Source of the DNA: Escherichia phage vB_Eco_F27
DNA length: 64,000 nucleotides
Direction: 5' to 3' (one strand)
Sequence record: OP870146.1
Shown: positions 4,351 through 60,528 of the stretch, in pieces
Numbering within the stretch: the first letter of the stretch is position 1
Layout: each line of letters begins with the position of its first letter
The notes under the pieces: generated by a model
What the model was told of the DNA's origin: nothing
Databases searched by the model: none
Seen by the model: the letters and a program-made list of their open reading frames with translations, nothing else
Program-made: the position numbers and the translations under genes

Positions 4351-4379
4351 ACTATAACATAGTCCTATAATTGTGTAAA
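4351..4379 (-). promoter_or_regulatory. early (sigma70-type) promoter: -35 TTTACA, 17-bp spacer, -10 TATAGT
   Basis: Minus-strand sense GTTTACAcaattATAGGACTAtgTTATAGTAGTCCTAT; 9-bp inverted repeat around the -10. Confidence 0.55.
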
Positions 4380-4392
4380 CAGTTTTGCGAAA

Positions 4393-5349
4393 TTATTTGA
4401 AAGGTTTTACCATATGGAAATTTTGTTTGAAACGTTTGACGTAATCGTCATGTCCTAAGCTTTGGTACATACTTACTACTTTGCTGTAGTTTTCCCAGGC
4501 GTATTCACGGAACCAACCGGAGGTGATGCTTGTGCAGACTTTTTCTAATGCCATCATGAAACTGGCTTCAGGGTTAATTTTAAAGTCATTAGGAATCTGA
4601 GAACGTTCTAATGCTAGTACACATGATTCTTCATATACACCGGCCAATTTGACCATTTCTGGTAACGATTCGAACTTCTCGCGTGAGGTCATGACTTCAG
4701 AACCGTCTTTCATATAAAATGTATAAGCCGGACGGTCTGTTAGTGCAATGGCTTCATGAATAGTATCATGGTCATATGTATAGATGTCATCTTTAAAGAA
4801 CGCACTTTTAGAAGTGTCAAGAACCGGGTGAGCATAGTTCAAGGTTTCTTTCTGGCGTTTCAGCATAATTTCAGTAAGTTCATCGTTCAGTGTAACACCT
4901 TTACCACGAAGATACTGAATATGGTTCATAGTCTTTAAAAAGAATGGATTATTTTTCTTGAAACGATGAGACATCTTAATTGCAAGACATATCTCAGGAG
5001 TTGCCCAGTAAAACCCGTTCAAACGGTCTTTAGTCAAATTTTTCTTGGCGTATTTTAAAAGGTCATAAGAAGACGTGAAATCTTCAGGAGTGAGTTCACC
5101 GACTAATTCACGGACATTAGTGATTGCCGGAACAATATATGCTTCAAAATGAGTTTCGCGTCCATTATGGAAGCATTTGAAAACTTGGACATCAGGGTTA
5201 TCTTGGTGAACATATACACCCATCATTTGATTTTTGAATGCATTCCAAGAACCTTGGTCCGCAATAAAGTCCCAATCGCTATTTTTGATAGCGCTAGAAT
5301 CAATAAGACCATGATAGTGAAGTGCACGAGAACCAATAACTAACATCAT
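4393..5349 (-). CDS. hypothetical early protein, 318 aa; possible nucleotidyltransferase-like N-terminus
   Basis: ORF track; ATG-ATG start with GAGGAAA SD; N-terminal LVIGSRALHYHGLIDSSAIKNSDWDF resembles a GS...DxD motif (weak). Confidence 0.5.
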   Translation of the reverse strand: MMLVIGSRALHYHGLIDSSAIKNSDWDFIADQGSWNAFKNQMMGVYVHQDNPDVQVFKCFHNGRETHFEAYIVPAITNVRELVGELTPEDFTSSYDLLKYAKKNLTKDRLNGFYWATPEICLAIKMSHRFKKNNPFFLKTMNHIQYLRGKGVTLNDELTEIMLKRQKETLNYAHPVLDTSKSAFFKDDIYTYDHDTIHEAIALTDRPAYTFYMKDGSEVMTSREKFESLPEMVKLAGVYEESCVLALERSQIPNDFKINPEASFMMALEKVCTSITSGWFREYAWENYSKVVSMYQSLGHDDYVKRFKQNFHMVKPFK

Positions 5350-5377
5350 AATATTTTCCTCGGATTAATTCATTAAC

Positions 5378-5629
5378 TTAAATTTCACGACATGCGATAT
5401 TATATTCGTCCCAGAGGTCATCGTGTGAAGCCTCTACCAATGGAACGATTGTACCGTTTATGTCTTCATTATAAGGGCAAATTGTACAGTGCGCATCTTC
5501 GAATCGGATGCCTTTGTGTTCAGATTTTTTATAACGCATATCGAATATCTTTGCAAACTTTTCACGAGTAATGGTTTTAGCAACCACTTTGGTTCCGATA
5601 CTTTCGTAATAAATCATTGTGGACTCCAT
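5378..5629 (-). CDS. hypothetical protein, 83 aa
   Basis: ORF track; ATG 5627-5629; early promoter upstream. Confidence 0.45.
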   Translation of the reverse strand: MESTMIYYESIGTKVVAKTITREKFAKIFDMRYKKSEHKGIRFEDAHCTICPYNEDINGTIVPLVEASHDDLWDEYNIACREI

Positions 5630-5645
5630 TTAATTTGATAGGACT

Positions 5646-5674
5646 ACTATAACATAGCCCTATCTTGTTGTAAA
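5646..5674 (-). promoter_or_regulatory. early promoter (-35 TTTACA / -10 TATAGT)
   Basis: Same architecture and spacing as 4351-4379. Confidence 0.5.
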
Positions 5675-5679
5675 CTGTT

Positions 5680-5877
5680 TTAGCAAGAATAACTAGATGA
5701 TACCCAGCCTTGAACAGTGATACTATTATGGGATAATGAGATCGCGTCCTGGAGATTCAGACCTGCGTTATCTTCAATCCATAATGTAACTTCTTCGCGT
5801 TCTTCTGTTGCAATTTGGAACAGGTTTTCCAGAGCAGCTACTGCCGTACGTACAGCACAATCTAATTCACGAGACAT
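5680..5877 (-). CDS. small protein, tandem paralog A (C-terminal QGWVSSSYSC), 65 aa
   Basis: ATG 5875-5877 with AAGGAAAC SD overlapping the stop of the upstream paralog. Confidence 0.55.
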   Translation of the reverse strand: MSRELDCAVRTAVAALENLFQIATEEREEVTLWIEDNAGLNLQDAISLSHNSITVQGWVSSSYSC

Positions 5878-5886
5878 ATTGTTTCC

Positions 5887-6159
5887 TTAGCAAGTGTGAG
5901 AAGATGCGACCCAACCACCAGTTTCGAGGCTCAGGTTGTAGTCGTATTGGTAAACGTCAGCCCATTCAGCATAGCCGTTTTTTGTACAACGTTCAAGATC
6001 GGCTTTAAGATGTCCGGGTGAATGATAGGTTCCACCCATACCATAAGCTGGATACAAGTCGAATGTTGTGTTTTGTTTATCAGCAATTTCTTTGGCAGCC
6101 TCAATAGCTGCATAGATTTTTGCTACAGCTTCAGCCAGTTCGGTTTGTTCTTTAGACAT
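5887..6159 (-). CDS. small protein, tandem paralog B (C-terminal GGWVASSHTC), 90 aa
   Basis: ATG 6157-6159 with AAGGAA SD. Confidence 0.55.
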   Translation of the reverse strand: MSKEQTELAEAVAKIYAAIEAAKEIADKQNTTFDLYPAYGMGGTYHSPGHLKADLERCTKNGYAEWADVYQYDYNLSLETGGWVASSHTC

Positions 6160-6168
6160 AATGATTCC

Positions 6169-6474
6169 TTAGCACAACGCAGAAGACGAAACCCAAGCAC
6201 CTTCAGTAATAACGTAACCATTACCTTCACGCTTAACATCGCCACCATTATTTTCAATTTCATCTTTCATCCACTGGGATACGATTTCACCCTTAGGATA
6301 ATAAGTACGACCACTACCATAATCACCTACAGAAAATGATACGGCATATTGGTCTGCGATCTTTGTTGCTTCTTCTTCGATACGTTCAGCTTGATTCAGA
6401 AGTTTATAAATTGCATCTGAAGCGGATTTGGCATCATTAAACTCTGGTACTTTAATTTCAATAATCTTACTCAT
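6169..6474 (-). CDS. small protein, tandem paralog C (C-terminal GAWVSSSALC), 101 aa
   Basis: ATG 6472-6474 with AAGGAATG SD; ATGA overlap with upstream gene. Confidence 0.55.
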   Translation of the reverse strand: MSKIIEIKVPEFNDAKSASDAIYKLLNQAERIEEEATKIADQYAVSFSVGDYGSGRTYYPKGEIVSQWMKDEIENNGGDVKREGNGYVITEGAWVSSSALC

Positions 6475-6830
6475 TTTCTACATTCCTTAATAAAGTTTTC
6501 GATTGTTTCATTTTCACGTCTAGCTAGGAGTTCATTATAACTAATCGTTTGAGAAGCGTAAACCTTTTTATTTTTCTTGTTGTGGTTTATAAAATCGTAG
6601 TAAAAATAGACTACAGTACAAAATGATGCGATGGATGCAAAGGCTTGGGTATACCGTAAGTCCTGCCATTGGTCTGTGAATCCACCAGTGTTCCCTATAA
6701 ATCCTAACACAACGCCGTCAATAAGAAATCCAACTAATCCAAAGGCAAATCCCATGCCAATACTCATAATAAAAATTAGAATGTTCTCACCAAGAGAAGG
6801 CCATACGGTTAAGAGTTGAGGCTTTTGCAT
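6471..6830 (-). CDS. small membrane protein, C-terminal ENFIKECRK tail, 119 aa
   Basis: ATG 6828-6830 with AAGGAAAT SD; hydrophobic segments LIFIMSIGMGFAFGLVGFLIDGVVLGFIG. Confidence 0.55.
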   Translation of the reverse strand: MQKPQLLTVWPSLGENILIFIMSIGMGFAFGLVGFLIDGVVLGFIGNTGGFTDQWQDLRYTQAFASIASFCTVVYFYYDFINHNKKNKKVYASQTISYNELLARRENETIENFIKECRK

Positions 6831-7204
6831 CTTATTTCCTTAACGAATTCCATAGCTTCTTCATATTCATACTTTTTAACAGCTTCATCATACTGAGCTT
6901 GGGCTTTTGCGCACTGAACTTTCCATTCGCGTACTCGAGCTCTATAATGACGGCCTTGGTGCCAATATCCTGCCCAATTAATAGGCATTAATAAAAATGG
7001 CACAATAAACGGCCCGGCTATAATAAGTAAAAACACTGCATCAGACGATATAACTTCACTAGAATCTAAAACAGCTCCTATAATCATAAAGATTAAAAAT
7101 GCTAAAGCTAAAATAGGGCCAAATAGTACTTCATTTGGGATTAATTTACGTTTGTATTCGTATGCCCAGGGCTTAATTGGCATGTACAGGGTTGGCTTTG
7201 ACAT
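6809..7204 (-). CDS. small membrane protein (C-terminal EFVKEIRCK), about 131 aa from ATG 7202-7204
   Basis: ORF track trimmed; two hydrophobic segments; start embedded in the ECR-encoding tail of the upstream gene. Confidence 0.45.
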   Translation of the reverse strand: MSKPTLYMPIKPWAYEYKRKLIPNEVLFGPILALAFLIFMIIGAVLDSSEVISSDAVFLLIIAGPFIVPFLLMPINWAGYWHQGRHYRARVREWKVQCAKAQAQYDEAVKKYEYEEAMEFVKEIRCKSLNS

Positions 7205-7775
7205 ATTCTCTACATTCCATAATAAATTGCTCAAGGATTAAATTGTTAGTGAAATTAGGACTAACAACCATAGTTTCATAAAGCGCATCAATAGCACTTA
7301 AAGCATCAACTCTTTTAAGCAAAGGCTTGCCTTCATACATAGTTTCAGAATCGATGATTAACGTAAAGTAATATTTTTTATTATCGACTAGAACTTCCGT
7401 ATCGATATAAAACATATTAGACCTCAGAAGCTTATCTCTAAAACCATAATAATCTTCAGAGCGTTCGCTGATATATTCCCATTCAGTGTTTAAACAACAA
7501 ACAGACCATGTAGGAGCAACGAAATCGGTGAATCTAATATCATGGTCTGCAACTAGTTTAGCAATAGCTCCGATATCATGAATCATAATACCTGGGGCTA
7601 ATAAAGATTTTCTGCTATGGCTAGCCGTTTTCTCAGTAGTCTCATAAGAAGACGACCAGTACCATTTACGTCCAGTTGCAACATATCGTAATGAATCAAC
7701 TAAAGATGTAGGTGGATTTACCTTATCTCGGAACTCTTCGAACATTGAGTCAATATCATTATTTTGGTTTCGCAT
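7173..7775 (-). CDS. hypothetical protein with FIMECR motif near C-terminus, 200 aa
   Basis: ORF track trimmed to ATG 7773-7775 with AAGGAG SD. Confidence 0.5.
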   Translation of the reverse strand: MRNQNNDIDSMFEEFRDKVNPPTSLVDSLRYVATGRKWYWSSSYETTEKTASHSRKSLLAPGIMIHDIGAIAKLVADHDIRFTDFVAPTWSVCCLNTEWEYISERSEDYYGFRDKLLRSNMFYIDTEVLVDNKKYYFTLIIDSETMYEGKPLLKRVDALSAIDALYETMVVSPNFTNNLILEQFIMECREYVKANPVHAN

Positions 7776-7798
7776 GTTAACTCCTTTATTATCCAAAA

Positions 7799-7816
7799 GG
7801 AGGACCGGAGTCCTCC
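7799..7816 (-). terminator. rho-independent terminator hairpin GGAGGAC-uccg-GUCCUCC followed by U-run (minus-strand sense)
   Basis: Perfect 7-bp GC-rich stem directly after the stop of CDS 7825-8418. Confidence 0.6.
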
Positions 7817-7824
7817 GTATTATT

Positions 7825-8418
7825 TTATTTCAAAGAGTTAATATATTCTTGTACATCAGCAGAAGTGGTTTCGACGCCGGCTGGAGTGCCATTGAACGTT
7901 TCAACACGAGTCAGAGTGTCTTCGATATCAACCTTAGTCAGTGCAGCGATTTCAATTACATCATCGGCCGTAGAGATACCAAGGGCATTGGCTGCTCGAG
8001 TTTCACGAATGTATTCGAGTTTGATTGCCAGGTTCTGACGAGCATCGTCAAGTTCAACCACCTTACGAGCAATTTCAATTCGCATAGCGGCATACCCGTC
8101 AGCTTTTGTATTAAGTTGTTCGGCAGTTCGACGATACAGAAGACCAAGCTTAGCATGCATGGTAACATCTTGTCCTTCAGCCAGGAGCTTACGAATTTCA
8201 CGTTCCTTAGAAGCGGCTTGCTTGTTCTTTTCATTAACAAGTTCGCGAATACGTTTTTCTTCATTAATAGATTTAACAGAAGCCGTTTTTAGTTCTTTGA
8301 TTTGGGTAATCAACTTATCTGCAGCTGCGTTATACTGTTCTTCGACAGTCAGATTTTTAGCCATAGCAGTACCAAGTTTAGTGCGGATGAATTCAACAAG
8401 TTTCTTCAGTGTGTTCAT
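7825..8418 (-). CDS. coiled-coil protein, possibly PspA/IM30-like, 197 aa
   Basis: ORF track trimmed from TTG to ATG 8416-8418; heptad-rich, charged sequence; family call is tentative. Confidence 0.4.
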
Positions 8419-8488
8419 ATTATTACCTTTCAATTGGTGGTTTATTATCCAACGAGAGCATTATACTCTGCTCTCAAGAGATTGTAAA

Positions 8489-8716
8489 TTATTTTTTAAT
8501 CAAATTGACATAAAACTCGGCGTCTTCCGGGTGCATGCCTTCGCAGTATTCTTCAACCATGAACTTCTTAACAGCTTCATAAGGACCGCTCAGATTAAGC
8601 TCAGTTGTCCAGAACTTGGAATCTTGGACCGAATCGATACGAACTTCAGGGTGACGGTTGCGAATAACTTCTTCAGTGTATTCATAATCAACGACATCAA
8701 TACTAACTGTAGCCAT
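8489..8716 (-). CDS. hypothetical protein, 75 aa
   Basis: ORF track; ATG 8714-8716; early promoter upstream. Confidence 0.45.
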   Translation of the reverse strand: MATVSIDVVDYEYTEEVIRNRHPEVRIDSVQDSKFWTTELNLSGPYEAVKKFMVEEYCEGMHPEDAEFYVNLIKK

Positions 8717-8745
8717 TTTGTTTCTCCTCTTGATTTGATGTGATT

Positions 8746-8774
8746 ACTATAACATAAACGTACTTAGATGTAAA
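8746..8774 (-). promoter_or_regulatory. early promoter (-35 TTTACA / -10 TATAGT)
   Basis: ATTTACAtctaagtacgtttatgtTATAGT on the minus strand. Confidence 0.5.
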
Positions 8775-8928
8775 TTATTTCAACGTCACCTTTAGCGGCT
8801 TTATAACCTTCAGCCCAAGATACAACAGAGTTTTTATCCGAGGATTCAAATTCAGGCATTGGACTTTCACCAATATTCACACAGTATGTTTCTTCATTTT
8901 CATCGAACCAAATAATTAAAGTAGTCAT
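8764..8928 (-). CDS. small hypothetical protein, 54 aa (MTTLIIWFDENEETYCVNIGESPMPEFESSDKNSVVSWAEGYKAAKGDVEIIYI)
   Basis: Not in ORF track (under 60 aa); ATG 8926-8928 preceded by GAGGAG SD within a promoter-leader cassette identical to the one at 45127-45173. Confidence 0.4.
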   Translation of the reverse strand: MTTLIIWFDENEETYCVNIGESPMPEFESSDKNSVVSWAEGYKAAKGDVEIIYI

Positions 8929-8958
8929 TTTGTTTACTCCTCTGTAGTTGATAAGTCT

Positions 8959-8987
8959 ATAGTATCACCATCCTTGGTGCTTGTACA
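8959..8987 (-). promoter_or_regulatory. early promoter (-35 TGTACA / -10 TACTAT)
   Basis: 17-bp spacing; leader carries GAGGAG SD. Confidence 0.45.
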
Positions 8988-8996
8988 TCATTATTT

Positions 8997-9302
8997 TTAA
9001 TTTTTCCAACTTAACAACTTGTAGTGTCCTTCATTCATACGTGGTTTATCCCAAGAAATACTAATATATGATTCGCTGTCAATAGAAGTCGCCGGGTTTT
9101 TCTCTACCGTAAGACCTTCACTTTCCAGCCATTCAATAGTATTTGCGCATAAATCAGAAGAACACCTAATCGGAAACCGGCAAGATTTTTCACCTTTAGC
9201 TGCAGTGTTATACATCTTTTCTAAAATACGCTTTTGCACGTTTTTAAAAATAGTTTCAGCAGATTCTTCAGATTTTTTATTCAGTTCAGTGTAAAGACTC
9301 AT
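8997..9302 (-). CDS. hypothetical protein, 101 aa
   Basis: ORF track; ATG 9300-9302; leader cataatattctcctcatgtttt is identical to that of CDS 4017-4322. Confidence 0.5.
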   Translation of the reverse strand: MSLYTELNKKSEESAETIFKNVQKRILEKMYNTAAKGEKSCRFPIRCSSDLCANTIEWLESEGLTVEKNPATSIDSESYISISWDKPRMNEGHYKLLSWKN

Positions 9303-9330
9303 AATATTCTCCTCATGTTTTGATAGGTCT

Positions 9331-9358
9331 ATAGTAACACATCTAGGGAAGAAGTAAA
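9331..9358 (-). promoter_or_regulatory. early promoter (-35 TTTACT / -10 TACTAT)
   Basis: Same cassette family. Confidence 0.45.
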
Positions 9359-9411
9359 CAACTTTTTCAGTAAGTTATAAACCCCCTAATGGGGACCGAA
9401 GTCCCCATTCT

Positions 9412-10038
9412 TTACTTACGAGTTTTTGCATATTGAGCAGCGTCAGCAGCCAAACGACCTGCCTGACGAAGTTTTTCTTTAATCGCATCGTGAAGTGGTT
9501 GAGTGTACTTCAAACCTTCGATAGTCAAATAAAGACGATAAAGGTCCGGGGTATCAAGGTTGTTGATATGTTGGCCATTACGAAGAATATTGAATTCACG
9601 AACGAGTGAAGATGTATCGGATTCAATATCACGAACAAGCGAAGATAGTTGTTTATATTTTTTTTCCAGACTAGAAGTATCAAACTTAAGAGCAGGAGCT
9701 TTAGGAGTTGCTTTTACTTCAGGCTTAGGCTCAGGTTTTGCTATTGCTTTAGGGGTCGCAGGTTTAGGAATGGAAGGAGTAGGTTTTACTTTAGGCGAAC
9801 CCGATTTAGCAGAAACACCACCACTAACAATATCTTTGAATGCTTTAGAAGCTCTGTAATATTCTTTTTGGCTGGAAGTGTCGATACCGTACATGGCTTG
9901 AACGTTTTTGAAAAACTCTGTACTAGTTTTTGTACCAGAAATAGCATCGTAAGCAGCTTGCCATTTCTCTTTTGTCATACGTACACCGGCTTCGGTGATT
10001 ACTTCCGTTTCGGCTAAAAATTCATTAAAAGTATACAT
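9412..10038 (-). CDS. internal head protein-like (N-terminus MYTFNEFLAE) with Pro/Lys-rich linker, 208 aa
   Basis: ORF track; ATG 10036-10038; late promoter TATAAATA about 36 nt upstream; PKVKPTPSIPKPATPKAIAKPEPKPEVKATPKAP segment. Confidence 0.5.
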   Translation of the reverse strand: MYTFNEFLAETEVITEAGVRMTKEKWQAAYDAISGTKTSTEFFKNVQAMYGIDTSSQKEYYRASKAFKDIVSGGVSAKSGSPKVKPTPSIPKPATPKAIAKPEPKPEVKATPKAPALKFDTSSLEKKYKQLSSLVRDIESDTSSLVREFNILRNGQHINNLDTPDLYRLYLTIEGLKYTQPLHDAIKEKLRQAGRLAADAAQYAKTRK

Positions 10039-10777: not shown

Positions 10778-10854
<77 letters not shown>

Positions 10855-10954: not shown

Positions 10955-11029
10955 TGGTGGCCCTGGCTGGTTTCGATCCAGCTACCTATCAGTTATGAGC
11001 TGACAGCTCTCCCATTGAGCTACAGGGCC
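10955..11029 (-). tRNA. tRNA with CAU anticodon (elongator Met, or Ile2 if lysidine-modified), 75 nt, CCA encoded
   Basis: Manual cloverleaf: acceptor GGCCCTG/CAGGGCC, D-arm GCTC-AATGGGA-GAGC, anticodon loop CTCATAA, T-arm GCTGG-ATCGAAA-CCAGC; ends resemble E. coli tRNA-Ile2. Confidence 0.85.
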
Positions 11030-11983: not shown

Positions 11984-11999
11984 TTGTTTTGATAGGACT

Positions 12000-12028
12000 A
12001 CTATAACATATCCCTATAGGCTTGTATA
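12000..12028 (-). promoter_or_regulatory. early promoter (-35 TATACA / -10 TATAGT)
   Basis: Cassette family, 17-bp spacer. Confidence 0.45.
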
Positions 12029-12031
12029 CCT

Positions 12032-12295
12032 TTATTTCAAATATATTGCGTATTTTTTATAGCCACCAGGCTCGTGTCGAAGACCTTTATCATTCGCAAA
12101 ACGTTGAATGTTATTGAACTGATTTTCATCAAGTTCGGATGTGTCAAATATGAAAAAGTTTCGTTTGTTGCCAAGCGTGATATGCGGAGTTAAGTCAATG
12201 TTATACAAATTAAGAATATCAGCAATAACCTGATTGACCGCTTTGTTAATTTTCACACCAGACGATTCTGAGATGAATTCGTTGAAAGTTTTCAT
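12032..12295 (-). CDS. internal head protein-like (N-terminus MKTFNEFISE), 87 aa
   Basis: ORF track trimmed to ATG 12293-12295; CTS-like N-terminus. Confidence 0.45.
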   Translation of the reverse strand: MKTFNEFISESSGVKINKAVNQVIADILNLYNIDLTPHITLGNKRNFFIFDTSELDENQFNNIQRFANDKGLRHEPGGYKKYAIYLK

Positions 12296-12327
12296 TTTAG
12301 GTTCCATTTGGTTGTTTTGATAGGACT

Positions 12328-12356
12328 ACTATAACATAATCCTATCGTGTTGTAAA
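12328..12356 (-). promoter_or_regulatory. early promoter (-35 TTTACA / -10 TATAGT)
   Basis: ATTTACAacacgataggattatgtTATAGT. Confidence 0.5.
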
Positions 12357-12668
12357 TTATTTTATGCCTTTAGAAGAAATGGTGTTTTGGCGTTTGGTCC
12401 CTGTTTGTGAAAAATCGTGGTTATCGATTTGGTCGACTCGCATAACACCAAATGCAGATTTAATTTTAGCCTTTGAACCTTTTTTGATACTAATTATCAT
12501 ATAAGTATCATTTTTCTTATATTCGAAATTTGTTACTTCAACGCCTTGATTAGAAATTGACTTAATAATAGCATTAGCGTATTCATCATCTAACGGACCG
12601 GTGGTGTTAATAATAAAATTTTTATCGGCTTTAGTAGCTTCAGCGATAAACTCTTGATAAGTTTTCAT
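12357..12668 (-). CDS. internal head protein (N-terminus MKTYQEFIAE, identical to the T4 capsid targeting sequence), in the ipI map position, 103 aa
   Basis: ORF track trimmed to ATG 12666-12668; adjacent to 57B as ipI is in T4. Confidence 0.6.
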   Translation of the reverse strand: MKTYQEFIAEATKADKNFIINTTGPLDDEYANAIIKSISNQGVEVTNFEYKKNDTYMIISIKKGSKAKIKSAFGVMRVDQIDNHDFSQTGTKRQNTISSKGIK

Positions 12669-12704
12669 TTGTTTTTTCCGTTTGGTTTGAGATTTGATAG
12701 GATG

Positions 12705-12733
12705 ATAGTAACACACCATCATCCTTATGTAAA
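12705..12733 (-). promoter_or_regulatory. early promoter (-35 TTTACA / -10 TACTAT)
   Basis: Arms AGGATGAT / ATCATCCT keep the inverted repeat around the -10 through different bases. Confidence 0.5.
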
Positions 12734-19379: not shown

Positions 19380-21353
19380 ATGGCAAACACTCCTGTAAAT
19401 TATCAATTAACACGAACAGCGAATGCTATTCCCGAGATTTTTATCGGGGGCACATTTGCCGAAATCAAACAGAACATTATCGAATGGCTCAATGGACAGA
19501 ATGAATTTCTTGATTATGATTTTGAAGGTTCACGCTTAAACGTATTGTGCGACCTTTTAGCATATAACACTCTTTACATCCAACAGTTCAGTAATAGTGC
19601 AGTGTATGAAAGTTTTATGCGTACTGCAAACTTGCGTAGTTCTGTTGTACAAGCGGCTCAAGATAACGGATATCTGCCTTCATCTAAATCAGCAGCACAA
19701 ACAGAAATTATGCTCACATGTACAGATGCATTAAATAGAAACTATATCACCATTCCACGTGGCACTCGTTTCTTAGCATACGCTAAAGATACTTCTGTTA
19801 ACCCGTATAACTTTGTTTCTACTGAAGATGTCATTGTAGTTAAAGACAAAAATAACCAATATTTTCCACGTCTTCGATTAGCTCAAGGACGTATTGTTCG
19901 CACTGAATTAACATTTGATAGATTAAAACCTATCATTATTCGTGATAAGAATATTGACCGTAATTTGGTTAAGTTGTATGTTGACGGAGCAGAATGGATT
20001 AACTGGACTCGTAAGTCGATGGTTCACGCTGGTTCTACGTCAACAATCTATTATATGCGTGAAACAGTTGATGGGAACACCGAATTTTATTTTGGTGAAG
20101 GCGAAATCTCTATTAACACATCAGAAGGTGCGTTAACATCTAACTATATTGGTGGCCTTAAACCTGTTCAGGGTTCTAAAATCGTAATTGAGTATATTTC
20201 TACTAATGGCGCAGATGCTAACGGTGCTGTAGGATTTTCTTATGCTGATACATTAGCTAATATCACGGTAATCGATATTAACGAGAACCCTAGCAATAAC
20301 CCAGACTTTGTCGGGGCCATCGGCGGCGGTGACCCTGAAGATATTGAACGTATCCGCGAATTAGGCACAATTAAACGCGAAACTCAACAACGTTGTGTAA
20401 CCGCTTCCGACTATGACACATTCGTCTCTGAGCGGTTTGGTTCTATTATTCAAGCGGTTCAAACATTCACAGATTCATCTAAACCAGGGTACGCATATAT
20501 TGCTGCTAAGCCTAAATCTGGATTGTATTTGACTTCTGTCCAACGCGATGATATCAAAAACTATTTGAATGATTATAACTTAGGGACTATTACACCTGTT
20601 GTTATTTCGCCTGATTATTTGTTTATCAAAATGAATATCAAAGTTACATACGCGTTGAATAAACTCCAAGAATCAGAACAATATCTTGAAGGGCAGATTA
20701 TTAATAAAATAGACCGTTATTATATTGAAGATGTAGAAATTTTTAACTCATCGTTTGCAAAATCTAAAATGCTAACTTATGTCGATGATGCAGATATTTC
20801 TATTATTGGTTCTTCAGCTACTATTCAAATGGTTCGCGAAGTACAAAACTTCTATAAAACGCCTGAGGCCGGTATTAAATACAATAATCAGATTAAAGAT
20901 AGATCGATGGAATCTAATATATTCTCGTTTGATTCGCACAGACCTAATCCAGAAAATGTAAATGAAACTATTAAATACGGTGTTCGCATAGTATCTTCTG
21001 ACCGTAATGATCGTGGCATAGGTCAAGTTATTATTGGTCCATTTGCAGACGGTGATGTTGTTGAAAACGAAAATATACAACCTTATACAGGTAATGATTT
21101 TAATAAACTTACTGTTACTGACGGACGAAACAAATACTATTCAATTGGTGAAGTGAATTATCCTGCCGATTCGATTTATTGGAACATTGCTAAAATTGAC
21201 CTCACTTCAGACCGTTTTGAAGTTCAAACAATTGAACTTTATTCCGACCCTGCAGATGATATTATTTTTACAAAGGATGGTTCTTTAATCGTATTCGAAA
21301 ATGACTTACGTCCTCAGTACTTAACTATAGATTTGGAGCCTATTTCACAATGA
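19380..21353 (+). CDS. 6: gp6 baseplate wedge subunit, 657 aa
   Basis: ORF track trimmed to ATG 19380 with AGGAA SD. Confidence 0.88.
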   Translation: MANTPVNYQLTRTANAIPEIFIGGTFAEIKQNIIEWLNGQNEFLDYDFEGSRLNVLCDLLAYNTLYIQQFSNSAVYESFMRTANLRSSVVQAAQDNGYLPSSKSAAQTEIMLTCTDALNRNYITIPRGTRFLAYAKDTSVNPYNFVSTEDVIVVKDKNNQYFPRLRLAQGRIVRTELTFDRLKPIIIRDKNIDRNLVKLYVDGAEWINWTRKSMVHAGSTSTIYYMRETVDGNTEFYFGEGEISINTSEGALTSNYIGGLKPVQGSKIVIEYISTNGADANGAVGFSYADTLANITVIDINENPSNNPDFVGAIGGGDPEDIERIRELGTIKRETQQRCVTASDYDTFVSERFGSIIQAVQTFTDSSKPGYAYIAAKPKSGLYLTSVQRDDIKNYLNDYNLGTITPVVISPDYLFIKMNIKVTYALNKLQESEQYLEGQIINKIDRYYIEDVEIFNSSFAKSKMLTYVDDADISIIGSSATIQMVREVQNFYKTPEAGIKYNNQIKDRSMESNIFSFDSHRPNPENVNETIKYGVRIVSSDRNDRGIGQVIIGPFADGDVVENENIQPYTGNDFNKLTVTDGRNKYYSIGEVNYPADSIYWNIAKIDLTSDRFEVQTIELYSDPADDIIFTKDGSLIVFENDLRPQYLTIDLEPISQ

Positions 21354-44863: not shown

Positions 44864-45133
44864 TTATTTCTGTGCAATTTCGATGTAAGTTTTCAAAATA
44901 TTTTGCCAATTAGGCATACCTTCTTGGACATATGCCGGAGAACCATCTTTGTTTTTGAATGATGCAAGTTTATCAGTGGCCCAATAACCTTTAGCTCGAG
45001 CTTCAGAATCAACTTTCATCCATACTTTGTTGAAGGCATTACCATTAACTTTTGCACCATATTTTTCTACTAACTTAACCGCTTCAGCTTCCAGAACTTT
45101 TAAAGTATCTCGTAAGAAACGTGCTTTAGTCAT
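44864..45133 (-). CDS. hypothetical protein, 89 aa, antisense insert between genes 23 and 24 (T4 segD position)
   Basis: ATG 45131-45133; driven by an early promoter-leader cassette identical over 47 nt to the one at 8922-8968. Confidence 0.5.
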   Translation of the reverse strand: MTKARFLRDTLKVLEAEAVKLVEKYGAKVNGNAFNKVWMKVDSEARAKGYWATDKLASFKNKDGSPAYVQEGMPNWQNILKTYIEIAQK

Positions 45134-45163
45134 TTTGTTTACTCCTCTGTAGTTGATAAGTCT

Positions 45164-45192
45164 ATAGTATCACATACCAAATACGTTGTAAA
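45164..45192 (-). promoter_or_regulatory. early promoter (-35 TTTACA / -10 TACTAT)
   Basis: 17-bp spacer; GAGGAG SD in leader. Confidence 0.5.
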
Positions 45193-47922: not shown

Positions 47923-48113
47923 TTCTTCACCTTTTTATTAATCAGACGTTTACGGTATACAACTTTTTCTTTTGCTTTAAACTTTGACCGAGCTGTCTCG
48001 GCTTTAGTCCATAGTAATCCAACTTCTTTAGGTTGTAAACCGATTTTTTGAGCAATTTCTACGAATGAAAATCCCGCCTCATGTAATGTATAAACTTCAA
48101 CTTCAGCTCTCAT
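47919..48113 (-). CDS. hypothetical protein, 64 aa, possible helix-turn-helix
   Basis: ORF track trimmed from TTG to ATG 48111-48113. Confidence 0.4.
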   Translation of the reverse strand: MRAEVEVYTLHEAGFSFVEIAQKIGLQPKEVGLLWTKAETARSKFKAKEKVVYRKRLINKKVKK

Positions 48114-54645: not shown

Positions 54646-55814
54646 CAGTATTCCAACGTCCAGGATATCCTAACTTAAGCGTTAAATTATACCAAGATTA
54701 TTCGGCTTGGCACGAAAATAGATACGTTGAACTCGCAGCAACAATAACAACTTTAACCATGCGAGATTCACTATATGGAAGAAATGAAGGGATTCTTCAA
54801 TTTTATGACACTAAAAACATCCACACTAAAATGGATGGTAGACAGATAGTCCAAATCTCTGTTTCAAATTCAAACACACCTCTCCAAGTTAGAACTCGAA
54901 TTTACGGATGTAGACATTATTCTGTGTCTGTGGACTCAAAAGGTGACAATATTATTGCAATTGAGCTTGGAACAATACATTCTATAGAGAACCTTAAATT
55001 TGGGCGACCATTCTTCCCAGACGCAGGAGAATCTATACGTGAAATGTTAGGTGTCATATATAAAGACCGTACGTTAATTACTCCGCCAATAAACACTATT
55101 AATGCTTATGTTCCTGATATTCCTTGGACAAGCACATTTGATGATTATTTGGCATATGTCAGAGAATTAGGACTTGCTACAGCGAGTGATAAGTTCGTAT
55201 TCGTATGGCAAGATATTTTAGGCGTAAACATGATTGACTACGATACTCTTATTGGTCAGGAAGGCATTAAGATGGTTGTAGGCGAGCCAAATACCGTAGG
55301 TCAGTATATTCAAGAGCTTGAGTATCCATTAGTATGGGATTTCACCTGGATGACTAAAGCTAACCAATTTACAAGAGACCCTATTAAAAACGCCACGATA
55401 TTCGCCCATTCATTTTTAGATACATCTATTCCGGTTATTGTTACAGGCGATGGTGATAATGCTATTGTTGTGTCAAGATCCGGTGGATATTCCGAAATGA
55501 CCTATCGTAATGGATTTGAAGAAGCAAGTCGTCTTCAGACAATGGCTCAATATGACGGATATGCTAAATGCACTACTACCGGTAATTTTAACATAACGCC
55601 TGCTACTAAAATTATATTTGTTGACCAAAAGAACCAATTCAAATCCGAATTTTACGTCGATGAAGTTATTCATGAGTTATCAAATAACAACTCACAAACT
55701 CATCTGTACATGTTTACCAACTCAATGGTGTTAGAACCTGTTAACCCAGTTAAGGTTAAAAATGAACTTAAATCTGATTCTACCTCTAAAGAAAATAATT
55801 CTACCACAGTCTAA
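54642..55814 (+). CDS. 27: gp27 baseplate hub subunit, 390 aa
   Basis: Length and order. Confidence 0.88.
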
Positions 55815-56295
55815 TAAAAAGGTAATGATTCCCAAATTAGGGCTCAAACATTATAATCTTTTAAAGGACGTTAAAGGCCCTGATGAAAACATGAAAATCT
55901 TAGCTGATTCTATTTGTAAAAATATGAGTCCCGCAGATTTTGATTTTGCATGTCTACACATATTGGAATTTAATAACAAACTTAAGTCTGAAGTTGAAAA
56001 AGACGGATTCACTTATAAACTAGACGACGTCTATGTATGCCAACGAACAGAATTCCAATTCCAAGGCAATACTTTTTATTTTAGACCCCCAGGCAAATTT
56101 GAACAATTCGCTACAATCAGTGAAATGCTATCAAATTGCTTAATAAAAGTTAATGACGAAGAGAAAGAAATTTCTTTCCTTGAGATGCCTGCTTTTGTAA
56201 TCAAATGGGCAGAAGACCTTTCGACAACTATTGCTATTACAGGCCCTAATGGTCCTATTAAGGGTATAGCAGAAATTATTGGATTGCTTGAATGA
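55762..56295 (+). CDS. 28: gp28 baseplate hub distal subunit, 177 aa (overlaps 3' end of gene 27)
   Basis: Same length as T4 gp28; [12 protein letters not shown]-terminus. Confidence 0.8.
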
Positions 56296-58064
56296 AACCT
56301 GAAGAAATGAAATCCATGCGTAGAAATAAGGTCATTGCCGATAATAAACCACAAAAAGTAGCTGCTGTTGCAGCTACCGATTCATTAGAAGCATTGAATA
56401 ACATTTCATCAAAACTAGACGATGTCCAAGCCGCGTCTGAACTCACATCACAAAGTGTAGAAGATAAAGGCAATGGAATCATTGAATCAATTGGAGACTT
56501 AAAGAATTCGACAGATAATACTGCTGAAGGCACAGAGCTTATCGCAGAAGTTATTGAAAAACAAACTGAAGTCACTAAAAGTATAAACGAAGTTTCTAGT
56601 GCAATAAGCTCTAAGTTAGACCGATTAGCTACATTATTAGAGCAAAAATTACAAACATCTACCGCTATTCAAAATACAGGAGGCACCTCTCTTGAAGTAA
56701 TTGAGAACGCAATACCTGTTAAAGTGGTTGAGAATGAAACTTCTGATGAGTTGTTTAAAGCATTCCCTACACCTGAAAAGATTGATAATAAGCCAGACGA
56801 AGATTTCTTCCCAGCGCCGGTTCAAGAAAGTGCTAATTCTACTTCCGATTCTAAAGGCGGAATTAGCTTTAAATTGAGCGATAAAATTGCAATGCTCACC
56901 AAAACAGTTCAAACCGGGTTTAATAAATCAATATCAATTTCAGACAGAATTGCTGGAATGCTTTTCAAATACACTATAACGGCTGCTATTGAAGCAGCAA
57001 AAATGGCCGCACTTATTCTTGGTATTGTTATCGGTATTGATTTATTGATAGTCCATTTCAAATATTGGACAGACAAGTTCACTTCTGCCTGGGATTTATT
57101 TGATGAAAACTTTACTAAATTCTCCGATGAAGCTAAAGAGTGGGGTAAATTCTTAAGTGATATATTCACTTCTATTGACTCGATAAAACAAATGTGGGAA
57201 GCTGGAGACTGGGGTGGTTTAACCGTTGCTATTGTCAAAGGTGTAGGAACAGCATTAATGAACTTAGGTGAACTAATTCAATTAGGAATGGCTAAACTCT
57301 CTGCGTCTATATTGCGTGCTATAGGTTTTGGCGATACCGCAGACGAAATAGAAGGACGTGCTTTAGAAGGATTCCAAGAAACTACTGGGAACAAATTAAA
57401 GAAAGAAGACCAAGAGAAAGTCGCTAAATATCAAATGAAGCGTGACGATGGGGAATTAGGAACCGTTTCTAAAGGTCTTGATATGTTACAACGTGGCAAA
57501 ACATTCGTTACTAACTGGGTTCGTGGTAATGACAATAAAGAAGAGTTTAGTACAAGCGATGAGCGTGCTGCGGAATCGGCAAAATTAAAAGAGTTACCTG
57601 AAGAGGAGCGTAAAGAGGCGTATATAAAAGCTAATGAAACTCGTGCGGCACTGGTTAGATTTGAGGATTATATCGATAAAATCGATATGACTAATCCGGA
57701 AAATGCTAAAAACGTCGAGAAGTCTTATGCTGATTTAAGTAAACTTATTAAAGACCCTGAACTTAATAAAACTCCTGTTGTTAAAAAGGAATTAGATGCT
57801 AGATTTGAAAAGCTAAATAATAAAATGGCTGAAGCCAAAAAGGCTCAGACAACAGTTAAGCCTGAATCTTCGTCTAAATCTCCGGAAGCAAAACAAGTTC
57901 AGTCAATAGAGAAAGGACGTGCTTCTGAATCTAAACAACAGCAACCGGTAGCGGCGATTAGTAACACAAATAATGTCGTCAAAAAGAATACCGTAGTCCA
58001 GAATATGACCCCTGTAACAAGTACAACGGCTCCTGGAATTTTCCATGCCACCGGTGTTAATTAA
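56292..58064 (+). CDS. 29: gp29 baseplate hub subunit / tail length determinator, 590 aa
   Basis: Same length as T4 gp29. Confidence 0.88.
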   Translation: MKPEEMKSMRRNKVIADNKPQKVAAVAATDSLEALNNISSKLDDVQAASELTSQSVEDKGNGIIESIGDLKNSTDNTAEGTELIAEVIEKQTEVTKSINEVSSAISSKLDRLATLLEQKLQTSTAIQNTGGTSLEVIENAIPVKVVENETSDELFKAFPTPEKIDNKPDEDFFPAPVQESANSTSDSKGGISFKLSDKIAMLTKTVQTGFNKSISISDRIAGMLFKYTITAAIEAAKMAALILGIVIGIDLLIVHFKYWTDKFTSAWDLFDENFTKFSDEAKEWGKFLSDIFTSIDSIKQMWEAGDWGGLTVAIVKGVGTALMNLGELIQLGMAKLSASILRAIGFGDTADEIEGRALEGFQETTGNKLKKEDQEKVAKYQMKRDDGELGTVSKGLDMLQRGKTFVTNWVRGNDNKEEFSTSDERAAESAKLKELPEEERKEAYIKANETRAALVRFEDYIDKIDMTNPENAKNVEKSYADLSKLIKDPELNKTPVVKKELDARFEKLNNKMAEAKKAQTTVKPESSSKSPEAKQVQSIEKGRASESKQQQPVAAISNTNNVVKKNTVVQNMTPVTSTTAPGIFHATGVN

Positions 58065-58072
58065 GGATTATT

Positions 58073-59182
58073 ATGATTAGTGTAAAAGAAATAGTAGTAG
58101 ATGCAAAGGATTTAAATAAAGCAATCCCAGTCTCAGAAAGTGCCGGGCAAAGCACTAAAACCGAAACAACTACTAAAACTTATGTTGCTCAATTTCCTAC
58201 AGGAAGAGCAGCCGGAAATGACTCCACAGGAGACTTCCAGGTAACAGACCTTTATAAGAATGGATTATTATTTACCGCGTACAATATGTCTGCACGCGAT
58301 TCAGGATCCCTCAGGAATTTACGTCCGGCGTATGCCGGTACTTCATCTAATGGTATCATATCAGATTTAACTGATAATGTGAAAGATGCAGTGACTAAAT
58401 TCTCAAACGGATTGCTTCCTGCCGGAGCTAATAAGTCTACTATAAATAAAACTCCTGTTGCCAATATCCTTTTGCCACGTTCCAAATCTGACGTTGATAC
58501 AACTTCACATCGTTTTAATGATGTCGGTGATAGCCTTATTACTAAAGGTGGAGGTACTGCTACAGGTGTTTTAAGTAACATTGCTTCTACTGCAGTTTTT
58601 GGTGCATTAGATTCTATTACTCAAGGGCTTATGGCCGATAATAACGAACAGATTTATACGACTTCTCGTAGTATGTATGGCGGTGCTGAGAACCGTACTA
58701 AAGTCTTTACATGGGATTTAACTCCGCGTTCAACTGAAGACCTTATGGCTATTATAAACATTTACCAGTATTTTAACTATTTCTCTTATGGTGAAACTGG
58801 TAAATCACAGTATGCCCAAGAGATTAAAAGTTATTTAGACGAATGGTACCGTTCAACGTTTATTGAGCCTATGACACCAGACGATGCAGTAAAAAATAAG
58901 ACATTGTTTGAAAAGATTACTGCGTCATTAACAAACGTATTAGTTGTAAGCAACCCTACAATTTGGATGGTTAAAAACTTTGGTTATACATCTAAATTTG
59001 ATGGATTAACTGACGTATTTGGCCCGTGTCAAATTCAAAGCGTACGTTTTGATAAAACTCCAAATGGACAATTTAATGGTCTCGCTGTTGCTCCTAACTT
59101 ACCATCAACATTTACGTTAGAGATAACAATGCGAGAAATTATTACATTAAACCGTTCTTCACTTTATGCGGGGACTTTCTAA
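58073..59182 (+). CDS. 48: gp48 baseplate tail tube cap, 369 aa
   Basis: Length and order. Confidence 0.88.
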   Translation: MISVKEIVVDAKDLNKAIPVSESAGQSTKTETTTKTYVAQFPTGRAAGNDSTGDFQVTDLYKNGLLFTAYNMSARDSGSLRNLRPAYAGTSSNGIISDLTDNVKDAVTKFSNGLLPAGANKSTINKTPVANILLPRSKSDVDTTSHRFNDVGDSLITKGGGTATGVLSNIASTAVFGALDSITQGLMADNNEQIYTTSRSMYGGAENRTKVFTWDLTPRSTEDLMAIINIYQYFNYFSYGETGKSQYAQEIKSYLDEWYRSTFIEPMTPDDAVKNKTLFEKITASLTNVLVVSNPTIWMVKNFGYTSKFDGLTDVFGPCQIQSVRFDKTPNGQFNGLAVAPNLPSTFTLEITMREIITLNRSSLYAGTF

Positions 59183-60144
59183 TGTACTCTTTAGAAGAAT
59201 TTAATAACCAAGCTATAAATGCAGATTTCCAACGAAACAATATGTTTAGTTGTGTATTTGCTACTACCCCATCGACCAAATCATCTTCACTAATTTCGTC
59301 AATTGGTAGTTTTGCTTATAATAACTTAGGGTTGGATTCTGATTGGCTAGGATTGTCTCAAGGTGATATCAATCAGGGCGTAACAACCCTGATTACAGCA
59401 GGAACACAGAAATTAATTCGAAAATCGGGTATAAGTAAATATCTGATTGGAGCAATGAGCCAACGTACGGTACAAAGCTTGTTAGGTGAGTTCACAGTAG
59501 GAGCTTATCTGATAGACTTCTTCAATATGGCATATAATAATACAGGTTTAATGATTTATTCTGTAAAAATGCCTGAGAACCGATTATCTTATGAAACGGA
59601 TTTCAACTATAACTCACCGAACATCCGAATTACCGGTCGTGAAATGGACCCGTTAGTAATAAGCTTTAGAATGGATTCTGAAGCATCTAACTTTAGAGCA
59701 ATGCAAGACTGGGTAAACTCAGTCCAAGACCCTGTAACAGGTCTTCGTGCTTTACCACAAGACGTCGAAGCAGATATTCAGGTTAATTTACATGCACGAA
59801 ATGGTTTACCACATACCGCTGTCATGTTCACTGGATGTATTCCTGTTAGTGTCTCTTCTCCTGAGTTAACGTATGATGGTGATAATCAGATAACAGTTTT
59901 TGATGTAACATTTGCTTATCGCGTTATGCAATCAGGTGCTGTAAATAGACAGGCTGCTTTAGAATGGCTGGAATCAGGACTTATTAGTAGTGTTTCAGGA
60001 ATGTTTGGAAATAATCAGAATGATTCTGGACTAGGAAGTGCAGTATCAAGACTTTCTAGATTAGGTGGGACTGCTGGTGGTGTGTCTAATATAAACACAT
60101 TGACAGGTGTGGTGAATTCTGCGTCAAGAGTTTTAGGACTATAA
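59182..60144 (+). CDS. 54: gp54 baseplate tail tube initiator, 320 aa
   Basis: Same length as T4 gp54. Confidence 0.88.
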   Translation: MYSLEEFNNQAINADFQRNNMFSCVFATTPSTKSSSLISSIGSFAYNNLGLDSDWLGLSQGDINQGVTTLITAGTQKLIRKSGISKYLIGAMSQRTVQSLLGEFTVGAYLIDFFNMAYNNTGLMIYSVKMPENRLSYETDFNYNSPNIRITGREMDPLVISFRMDSEASNFRAMQDWVNSVQDPVTGLRALPQDVEADIQVNLHARNGLPHTAVMFTGCIPVSVSSPELTYDGDNQITVFDVTFAYRVMQSGAVNRQAALEWLESGLISSVSGMFGNNQNDSGLGSAVSRLSRLGGTAGGVSNINTLTGVVNSASRVLGL

Positions 60145-60150
60145 GAAAAA

Positions 60151-60170
60151 GGGAGACAACGTCTCCCTTT
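60151..60170 (+). terminator. rho-independent terminator GGGAGAC-aac-GUCUCCC then UUU
   Basis: After the gene 54 stop; A-run on the other side makes it bidirectional. Confidence 0.65.
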
Positions 60171-60176
60171 AGGGGT

Positions 60177-60470
60177 TTATTTACGGAATGAAAGGAATGC
60201 TGGTGCTCGGAATGGAGTATCATCTTTAGAGTATTTAACTAATACGACCATTGGTACCTCTGTTTCTAAATGACCTGTCACCACACCGATAAAAATTTGA
60301 TCAGTGTGCTCAGGGTCACGAAAGTTTTTAAGAGGTTCCATAGCAATATGGAATGCACCTGGGAATACTCGATTCAATTCGTCAATCACAGCTTCGTTAA
60401 AAGCATCATCCGCCGGGATAGCATCTTCAACTACTAGTTCTTGACCGTTAAAGCGAAGCATAGATTTCAT
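60177..60470 (-). CDS. hypothetical protein, 97 aa (alt-adjacent)
   Basis: ORF track trimmed to ATG 60468-60470 with GAGGAAA SD; early promoter upstream. Confidence 0.5.
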   Translation of the reverse strand: MKSMLRFNGQELVVEDAIPADDAFNEAVIDELNRVFPGAFHIAMEPLKNFRDPEHTDQIFIGVVTGHLETEVPMVVLVKYSKDDTPFRAPAFLSFRK

Positions 60471-60499
60471 AACGTTTTCCTCATGTTGTTGATGGGATG

Positions 60500-60528
60500 A
60501 TAGTATCACACATCCATGTGTTTGTAAA
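60500..60528 (-). promoter_or_regulatory. early promoter (-35 TTTACA / -10 TACTAT)
   Basis: AGTTTACAaacacatggatgtgtgaTACTAT on the minus strand. Confidence 0.5.

Follow-up and report, generated by a model that had tools for sequence, protein, structure and literature searches.

A stem-loop embedded in T4-type early promoters of Escherichia phage vB_Eco_F27 is kept by selection and follows the end of the upstream gene

In a 64,000-nucleotide stretch of DNA from Escherichia phage vB_Eco_F27 (sequence record OP870146.1; the whole stretch is referred to here as the window), a first-pass annotation had listed ten minus-strand early promoters, many of them with an inverted repeat around the −10 element. 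We found that the repeat is a hairpin built into a subset of T4-type early promoters, that it is maintained by selection in T4-like phages, its sequence varying while its pairing is kept, and that its presence depends on the gene ending upstream of the promoter. With moderate confidence, we interpret the hairpin as a 3′-end or boundary RNA structure of the upstream cistron, written into the free positions of the next T4-type early promoter.

Promoters are named below by the first base of the −35 element (for example 4379), whereas the sites of the earlier list refer to the far end of the −10 element (for example 4351). The pattern TTTACA-N17-TATAGT matched four sites (4351, 5646, 8746 and 12328; 0.03 expected) and TTTACA-N17-TACTAT matched another four (12705, 45164, 48011 and 60500; 0.02 expected), all on the minus strand, giving eight exact matches to the two patterns against approximately 0.05 expected by chance. 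Three other sites of the earlier list deviate once in the −35 element (8959, TGTACA; 12000, TATACA; 9331, GTTTACT). All ten listed promoters exist, as exact matches or as versions with a single −35 mismatch, and all display the extended −10 TG followed by a Shine-Dalgarno (SD) sequence and an ATG. The leader motif GAGGAG or GAGGAAA that had been assigned to the whole set was present behind six of the ten, with TGGAG, TGGAA or CGGAA behind the other four. The exact match at 48011-48039 had rightly been omitted from the list; it has neither the TG nor a downstream SD-ATG, is situated inside a coding region, and is probably a chance or vestigial site rather than a promoter.

A relaxed scan revealed five more promoters of the same build (8488, 6562, 1352, 921 and 461), bringing the early-type promoters in the window to about 15. 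The −35 element is an exact TTTACA at eight sites and differs at one position in seven more, the spacer is 17 bp in 13 of the 15 promoters and 16 bp in two, and the TG is found in 13, being absent at 8488 and 6562. The 19 nt upstream of the −35 element consist of 48% A and 76% A+T, compared to 31% A and 62% A+T in the whole strand. The description of the promoters as near-identical holds for these core elements; the cassettes as a whole (repeat family D1) are 65-77% identical across 65 nt. T4 early promoters have been described as ‘UP/-35/TGn/-10’ promoters (Hinton 2010, PMC2988021; Nolan 2006, PMC1524935). The sites in the window resemble them in the −35 element, the spacer, TGn, TAnnnT, the A-rich UP element and their position before small early open reading frames (ORFs) and internal-protein genes, with no essential difference. 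Because they match the published consensus in every element tested, we classify the sites, on the basis of their sequence, as T4-type early promoters (A-rich UP, GTTTAC(A/T), 17 bp, TGn, TAnnnT, SD-ATG), in agreement with their initial designation as early promoters.

The region from −30 to +8 of each window promoter was folded as RNA and compared with 200 dinucleotide shuffles each. Five promoters (4379, 5674, 8488, 12356 and 12733) formed a hairpin of 10-12 bp extending from the spacer to about +2, with z values between −3.9 and −6.0, and in each case none of the 200 shuffles was as stable (Table 1). The inverted repeats first noticed at 4351 (ATAGGACTAT/GTAGTCCTAT, 4343-4368) and 12705 (AGGATGATGGTG/TACTATCATCCT, 12699-12725) are real and, as at 5674 and 12356, are longer than initially recognized, reaching 10-12 bp when G·U pairs are included. 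On the other hand, to attribute the repeat to many of the promoters was generous, as it is significant in five of about 15. Three unrelated arm sequences are found among the window hairpins. Arms of the type ATAGGnnTAT/GTAGTCCTAT are common to three significant hairpins and to a decayed copy at promoter 12028, and the pair GAGAGC/GCTCTC at 8488 is unrelated to the arms of the others. In the hairpin at 12733, the 3′ arm includes the −10 hexamer, and UGU (−15 to −13) forms the loop. The repeats at 12028, 60528 and 461 were not individually significant against the shuffles, and folding around the −10 element gave nothing notable at 8774, 8987, 9359, 45192, 6562, 1352 and 921.

We then turned to relatives. 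Three pattern scans of a viral contig collection, fixing only GTTTACA, TG and one −10 variant, gave about 340 loci with a total of 3.0 Mb. Promoters were called without regard to the arms, from the fixed elements and a downstream SD-ATG, and loci with at least two such promoters were kept, resulting in 181 unique promoters. As a control, chimeras were made by joining left and right halves taken from different promoters. A fold of −10 kcal/mol or below was obtained with 26% of the 181 promoters and 2.6% of the chimeras, and uninterrupted stems of at least 10 bp with 17% and 2.0%, respectively. Among the 59 stems of at least 8 bp, the most frequent register was a symmetry centre at −11.5 (24 stems); in a minor group with a centre near −14, the TACTAT hexamer itself is part of the stem.

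Covariation was examined in a gap-free alignment (A1) of 77 promoters with short upstream intergenic regions, in which the structure pairing −28..−15 with −8..+6 was tested. Paired cells amounted to 56.7% and the covariation score to 0.296; column shuffles gave 51.0±1.0% and 0.226±0.012, respectively, and none of 500 reached either observed value. When the register was slid by 1-3 columns, only 33-47% of cells were paired and the scores were 0.13-0.18. A second register, with its centre at −14.5, applies to a TACTAT subclass and reached only marginal support when all of A1 was considered (the paired percentage was equalled by 8 of 500 shuffles and the covariation score by 6 of 500). The 41 hairpin-bearing members of A1 fell into 22 clusters of arm sequences. 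In addition, orthologous promoters, matched via the downstream gene, were found to keep the hairpin with both arms replaced. The orthologues of the 8488 family display the arms GAGAGC/GCTCTC, GAGGAC/GTCCTC and TGTGTAGGAG/CTCCTACACA, and those of the 12028 family ATAGGACTAT/GTAGTCCTAT, ATAGGGTA/TACCCTAT and GGGCTtTAGT/ACTATAGCCC; the orthologue of promoter 12028 in one relative (locus L053) has a perfect stem. The initial view that the symmetry reflects a structural element rather than chance was thus borne out in a larger sample of promoters: the arms covary in a register-specific manner across the 77 promoters, their replacement is compensatory, and there are at least 22 arm sequences.

T4 itself (NC_000866, locus L001) carries the element. 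The promoter before dmd has a perfect 15-bp stem, AGCTGACAAGACTAT / GTAGTCTTGTCGGTT, bracketing the −10 element with −21.7 kcal/mol; its start site is near 20576, where 58 bp separate gene 41 from dmd. This promoter would be well suited as a model for experiments. Another T4 promoter, near 8182 (motB.2), gave a fold of −11.5 kcal/mol. The RefSeq record of T4 contains no promoter features.

The presence of the hairpin was strongly dependent on what lies upstream. Of 135 promoters preceded within 110 nt by the end of a co-oriented ORF, 46 had it, compared to 2 of the 40 lacking such an ORF (odds ratio 9.8, P=1e-4), and where a hairpin is present the preceding gene nearly always stops at −38 to −55, right against the −35 element. 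Tested over all promoters together, embedded and upstream hairpins were not significantly anticorrelated (odds ratio 0.62, P=0.19); their exclusivity emerged only once the promoters were grouped according to where the upstream gene stops. With a stop at −56 or closer (n=77), 53% of the promoters had an embedded hairpin and 1% a separate hairpin upstream of −30, whereas with a stop at −57 to −160 (n=55) the values were 9% and 69%; the difference in embedded hairpins between short and long intergenic regions corresponds to P=9e-8. The separate upstream hairpins are canonical intrinsic terminators: their stems are GC, their loops often of the UUCG type, and the 8 nt that follow the stem contain 4.05 T on average. 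The window obeys the same rule. Its five embedded hairpins all have an upstream stop at −38 to −52, and promoter 9359, whose stop is at −90, has a separate stem-loop instead. This tetraloop hairpin, behind a 208-aa gene, is followed on the transcribed strand by AUUAGGGGG instead of a U-run, and is therefore not a textbook terminator either. Seven hairpin-less promoters (60528, 12028, 8987, 6562, 1352, 921 and 461) also have a stop at −38 to −47, indicating that a short intergenic region is no guarantee of a hairpin. Taking into account that the hairpin tracks the upstream stop codon and excludes ordinary terminators, a transcript-level role for the upstream cistron is indicated, rather than control of its own promoter.

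From the promoter anatomy, the hairpins themselves, their covariation and their context dependence, all observed directly, we infer that the hairpin acts as RNA. The small early genes lie head to tail, each with its own promoter, and the early promoters are predicted to be read by the host sigma-70 RNA polymerase. The stem-loop would be shaped from positions that the polymerase does not read, namely the spacer (−28 to −16) and the discriminator and start region (−6 to about +6), and would form in read-through RNA initiated at the promoter of the preceding gene. Its location within the next promoter would be due to lack of space, the stop codon of the preceding gene abutting the −35 element; in a long intergenic region, the same job would be done by an ordinary terminator with GC stem and U-run upstream of the promoter. 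The embedded hairpin could serve as a read-through attenuator, a barrier to 3′ exonucleases, or both. We lean towards 3′-end protection or a processing boundary over efficient termination. A barrier to 3′ exonucleases is the more plausible role, acting after endonucleolytic cuts, for example by RegB, whose targets are GGAG-containing sites, or by RNase E, in the A-rich, GGAG-containing leader downstream. Attenuation would be an alternative role, by analogy with the claim made for one RB49 stem-loop (see below). As a repeated block of homology, the element may in addition promote exchange of the small genes on either side of it.

The folding of the two strands is relevant to this interpretation. 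In a sample picked by Watson-Crick-only helices, a strand-symmetric criterion, the sense strand folded better than the antisense strand in 61 of 78 promoters, as against 17 for the reverse, and in 32 of 41 arm clusters, as against 9. Interior mismatches were of the G·T type in 19 cases and of the A·C type in 2. Part of the strand bias derives from positions fixed by the promoter (T−15·G−8 and G−16·T−7), and many of the mismatches are at consensus-fixed positions, so that the G·T versus A·C asymmetry was dropped as proof of structure at the RNA level. The bias is suggestive of a single-stranded, sense-strand structure. The promoter's own transcripts begin downstream of the greater part of the stem, so that an RNA form of the hairpin can only be present in read-through transcripts, which fits its dependence on the upstream gene.

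Several points weigh against the interpretation. When the promoter core was masked, the strand bias fell to 18 versus 11 (P=0.10), or 9 versus 3 for the clusters (P=0.04), and a fixed-register count of G·T versus A·C mismatches was not significant. Only about half of the short-intergenic promoters have the hairpin, which is hence dispensable, and the relatives were seeded with three −10 variants, so that the frequencies among them are not genome-wide estimates. In the window, 4379, 5674, 12356 and the decayed 12028 represent a single arm sequence, and are paralogous copies rather than independent cases. We found no transcript 3′-end maps for T4-like phages in the searchable literature. Finally, no U-tract follows the embedded stems (1.2 T in 8 nt), and a terminator scan called none of the embedded hairpins. 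The embedded hairpin resembles intrinsic terminators in being a stable stem-loop right after a stop codon, in the same functional slot, but its stems are more AT-rich and the 1.2 T contrast with the 4.05 T of true terminators at the same loci. Classical termination is thus unlikely. The antisense direction was also considered, where the tail would correspond to A residues before the stem; with 2.9 A there, neither strand has a U-tract, and the canonical terminator reading was rejected.

Elements of this class have already been named. The PeSL was defined in RB49 and phi1 as an early promoter plus a stem-loop (Arbiol 2010, PMC2839356), and was extended to the pairs PST/T4 and nt-1/KVP40 (Comeau 2014, PMC4122927). 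The RB49/phi1 stem-loop lies mostly between the −35 and −10 elements or overlaps the −10 element, with G·T pairs in the stem. One RB49 stem-loop, the only one tested, lowered the expression of a lacZ gene placed downstream to about the same extent as rrnB T1, and mini-circles arose when RB49/phi1 PeSL copies recombined (PMC2839356). For PST/T4, the element is given as TTTACW-N17-TAYWAT with stems ‘often AGNA-loop-TCNT’ (PMC4122927), which suits the AGGA...TCCT stems found here; the identity of the two is judged from this stem consensus. Our five hairpin promoters have the composite build of a PeSL, a promoter combined with a stem-loop, with the stop codon at the 5′ edge and the SD-ATG at the 3′ edge. 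They share with the published elements a stop codon in an AT-rich stretch, early promoter, stem-loop, SD and ATG within one intergenic element, a stem-loop often between the boxes or over the −10 element with G·T pairs in its stem, and a concentration among small variable genes and internal-protein genes in the form of repeated homology blocks. The window element is the T-even/RB69-type version of the published PeSL cassette.

As a positive control, 30 kb of RB49 were scanned. Both geometries were recovered. Most stems (GGGGATC...GATCCCC; G4-7...C4-7) are wholly inside the spacer, and a minority bracket the −10 element as in the window (GGGGATAT/ATATCCCC and GGGTGTAT/ATACACCC). In contrast to the spacer stems of RB49, the stem in the window and in T-even relatives straddles the −10 element, in the −11.5 register or a second one at about −14, because the TG and the GT-rich end of the spacer are fixed. 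In the parts of the PeSL papers available, we found no description of the −11.5 register, the switch with intergenic length, the exclusivity with terminators or the missing U-tract. In reviews of T4 early promoters, ‘additional regions of consensus’ are noted without explanation, as is a stretch rich in GT 5′ of −12 (PMC2988021; PMC1524935). Part of this extra consensus consists of the inner base pairs of the hairpin, T−15·G−8 and A/G−16 with T−7 in alignment A1. T-even internal-protein genes are also known to be flanked by conserved early-promoter blocks (Repoila 1994, as summarized by Arbiol 2010, PMC2839356). As there, promoter homology blocks in the window lie on both sides of genes that start with a conserved leader of 11 residues, of which the window has six; the stem-loops of those blocks differ in being characterized, by Arbiol 2010, only as ‘weaker, more AT-rich, of variable sizes’.

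The alternative that fares best regards the hairpin, as a hairpin, cruciform or homology block, as a DNA recombination element that targets cassette exchange and is kept for shuffling early and internal-protein genes. In RB49/phi1, PeSL-PeSL recombination and the formation of mini-circles had crossovers in or beside the stem-loop (Arbiol 2010), PeSLs adjoin indels in PST/T4 (Comeau 2014), and the window cassettes are repeat families of 41-65 nt flanking ORFans and the six internal-protein-like genes. Moreover, an orthologue of promoter 8774 appears to be a chimera (described below), and the right arm ACTCCTACAC is combined with unrelated spacers in many promoters of relatives. However, homologous exchange requires identity, not self-complementarity, and compensatory change within one promoter would be left unexplained, as would the loss of the hairpin where a normal terminator lies upstream and the preference for G·U on the sense strand. 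We regard recombination as an unlikely primary function; it is compatible with an RNA boundary structure as a secondary consequence, and does not replace it.

A bolder proposal, to which we give little credence, is that a single 40-bp element couples the promoter mechanistically to the boundary of the transcript, the hairpin halting or releasing upstream polymerases only together with the embedded sigma-70 signals. The hairpin lacks a U-tract and has the extended −10 element in or beside its loop, and the coupling could proceed through sigma-dependent pausing at the −10 element or through collision with a polymerase bound at this very strong promoter. If true, the element would represent a U-tract-independent transcription end in E. 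coli, evolved at about 60 bp of intergenic space.

We consider it very unlikely that the repeat regulates its own promoter at the DNA level, either as an operator for a dimeric phage or host protein or as a supercoil-dependent cruciform off-switch. The symmetry is centred on the −10 box, and such an off-switch would bear on the shut-off of T4 early promoters, whose mechanism, like the ‘additional regions of consensus’, is unexplained (Hinton 2010, PMC2988021). Nevertheless, the share of early promoters with the repeat is only about one quarter to one half, and just 2 of the 40 without a co-oriented upstream gene have it; a promoter regulator has no reason to depend on an upstream gene end and the absence of an upstream terminator; a cruciform-type switch does not predict this context dependence. 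A protein operator was excluded, as the arms are not conserved in sequence, with three unrelated pairs in the window and at least 22 in relatives, a variety of half-sites unreadable by a sequence-specific protein. The ‘operator-like’ character initially suggested for the repeat was accordingly abandoned, there being no conserved half-site and a hairpin that follows the upstream stop codon, mutually exclusive with ordinary terminators.

In the least probable account, the hairpin has no function: it would be a peculiarity handed down with one duplicated cassette, its recurrence due to paralogy and its perfection perhaps preserved by quasi-palindrome templated repair. This account can draw on the essentially identical arms at 4379, 5674, 12028 and 12356, one repeat family, and on a promoter consensus that is partly self-complementary (51% paired even in shuffles), but is contradicted by the unrelated arms at 8488 and 12733 in the same window, the 22 arm clusters in relatives, orthologous sites that swap both arms and keep pairing, chimeras of real halves that fold ten times less often, and the strong context dependence.

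The coordinates of the promoters, hairpins and tRNA genes in the window are listed in Table 1.

Table 1. Early-type promoters, stem-loops and tRNA genes in the window (the number in parentheses is the promoter name).
Feature	Position	Strand	Remarks
Early promoter (4379), −35 TTTACA 4379-4374, TGT, −10 TATAGT 4356-4351	4351..4379	minus	ATG at 4322
Embedded hairpin AUAGGACUAU / GUAGUCCUAU, loop GUUAUA	4343..4368	minus	−12.7 kcal/mol, z −4.66
Early promoter (5674), TTTACA-17-TATAGT, TG present	5646..5674	minus	ATG at 5617
Embedded hairpin GAUAGGGCUAU / GUAGUCCUAUC, one G·U pair	5637..5664	minus	−16.0 kcal/mol, z −5.98
Early-type promoter (8488), TTTACA-17-TATAAT without TG	8460..8488	minus	ATG at 8418
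Embedded hairpin GAGAGCAG / AUGCUCUC and outer 4-bp helix	8447..8482	minus	−14.6 kcal/mol, z −3.90
Early promoter (12356), TTTACA-17-TATAGT, before internal-protein-like gene MKTFNEFISE...	12328..12356	minus	ATG at 12295
Embedded hairpin GAUAGGAUUAU / GUAGUCCUAUC, one U·G pair	12319..12346	minus	−14.3 kcal/mol, z −5.75
Early promoter (12733), TTTACA-17-TACTAT, before internal-protein-like gene MKTYQEFIAE...	12705..12733	minus	ATG at 12668
Embedded hairpin, second geometry, AGGAUGAUGGUG / UACUAUCAUCCU	12699..12725	minus	−15.4 kcal/mol, z −5.26
Early promoter (12028), TATACA-17-TATAGT, decayed hairpin	12000..12028	minus	stem span 11992-12017, −5.6 kcal/mol, not significant
Early promoter (60528), TTTACA-17-TACTAT	60500..60528	minus	GGAUG/CAUCC remnant only, not significant
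Early promoter (45192), TTTACA-17-TACTAT	45164..45192	minus	no significant hairpin
Early promoter (9359), GTTTAC-17-TACTAT	9331..9359	minus	no embedded hairpin; upstream stop at −90
Separate stem-loop GGGGAC-UUCG-GUCCCC	9388..9409	minus	between upstream stop codon and promoter 9359, −15.9 kcal/mol
Early promoter (8987), TGTACA-17-TACTAT	8959..8987	minus	no hairpin around −10
Early promoter (8774), TTTACA-17-TATAGT	8746..8774	minus	no hairpin, 0 to −0.3 kcal/mol
Early-type promoter (6562), TTTACG-17-TATAAT	6534..6562	minus	no hairpin
Early promoter (1352), TTTACT-17-TACTAT, TG present	1324..1352	minus	no hairpin
Early promoter (921), TTTACG-17-TATAAT, TG present, before internal-protein-like MKTYKEFIAE gene	893..921	minus	ATG at 861
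Early promoter (461), TTTACA-16-TAGTAT, TG present	434..461	minus	weak stem, −6.2 kcal/mol, z −1.78
tRNA-Arg(TCT) and tRNA-Met(CAT)	10778-10854 and 10955-11029	minus	inside early-gene series

A close relative is vB_EcoM_G2469 (locus L343; 97-99% identical), which is 98.6% identical over a 9-kb stretch of the window containing most of the promoter sites and whose record is classed as Mosigvirus (RB69 group, Tevenvirinae). Judging from this resemblance, we assign the window to a Mosigvirus, an RB69-like relative of phage T4. Its left 13 kb consists of a series of small minus-strand genes together with the two tRNA genes and internal-protein-like genes, a type of region termed hyperplastic in T4-like phages; 13 of the 15 early promoters are within 1-13 kb, among small hypothetical and internal-protein-like genes. 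A leader resembling MKTYxEFIAE, characteristic of internal proteins, opens six small minus-strand genes (ATGs at 861, 1186, 1637, 10038, 12295 and 12668) and was also recovered at the DNA level as repeat families D3 and D5. Three of the six genes are directly behind promoters of the T4 early type. They occur in three groups (861-1637, 10038 and 12295-12668), an arrangement that recalls the polymorphic internal-protein loci of T-even phages.

A number of further observations concern individual promoters and arms. In vB_EcoM_G2469, the orthologue of promoter 8774 has the common right arm AGTCCTATC with no matching left arm, at the position where the window promoter has AATCACATC, and the orthologue of 12733 has a C-to-A change that breaks one G-C pair; these changes point to recent turnover or recombination inside promoters. 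Promoters 8987 and 45192, situated 36 kb apart, are identical between the −10 element and the start codon, both included (TACTATAGACTTATCAACTACAGAGGAGTAAACAAAATGACT; minus strand, 8928-8964 and 45133-45169), and differ in their spacers and coding sequences, and promoters 4379 and 9359 have ATCAAAACATGAGGAGAATATTATGA in common. Judged by sequence, these shared stretches look like cassette exchange with breakpoints at the −10 element. In the region 1270-1352, the SD and the ATG (at 1296) behind promoter 1352 lead into a frame of only nine codons (MTRPKRPLR), and the corresponding region of vB_EcoM_G2469 is unrelated in sequence; the frame could be a remnant, a leader peptide or the product of a recent rearrangement. 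The arms of the embedded hairpins (set A promoters) are skewed in composition, with 213 G and 43 C in the 5′ arm and 162 C and 69 G in the 3′ arm, a skew that is not clearly mirrored in the upstream terminators. A conserved start region resembling a right arm (ACTCCTACAC or AGTCCTATC) is also found in many promoters without a hairpin, which suggests that this sequence serves the promoter or the 5′ leader independently of the hairpin.

These results do not change the current picture of T4 transcription. They account for part of the ‘extra consensus’ long noted in T4 early promoters, and lead to a simple rule: where the stop codon abuts the −35 element, the hairpin is embedded in the promoter, and where room is available, an ordinary terminator is found. 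Annotation pipelines that require a U-tract will miss transcript boundaries of this kind, and the arrangement may be reusable in synthetic phage cassettes. If our interpretation is correct, a dense phage genome would overlay two signals on the same 40 bp, in which the polymerase reads the −35 element, the TG and the −10 element, and the remaining positions encode the RNA structure of the neighbouring gene.

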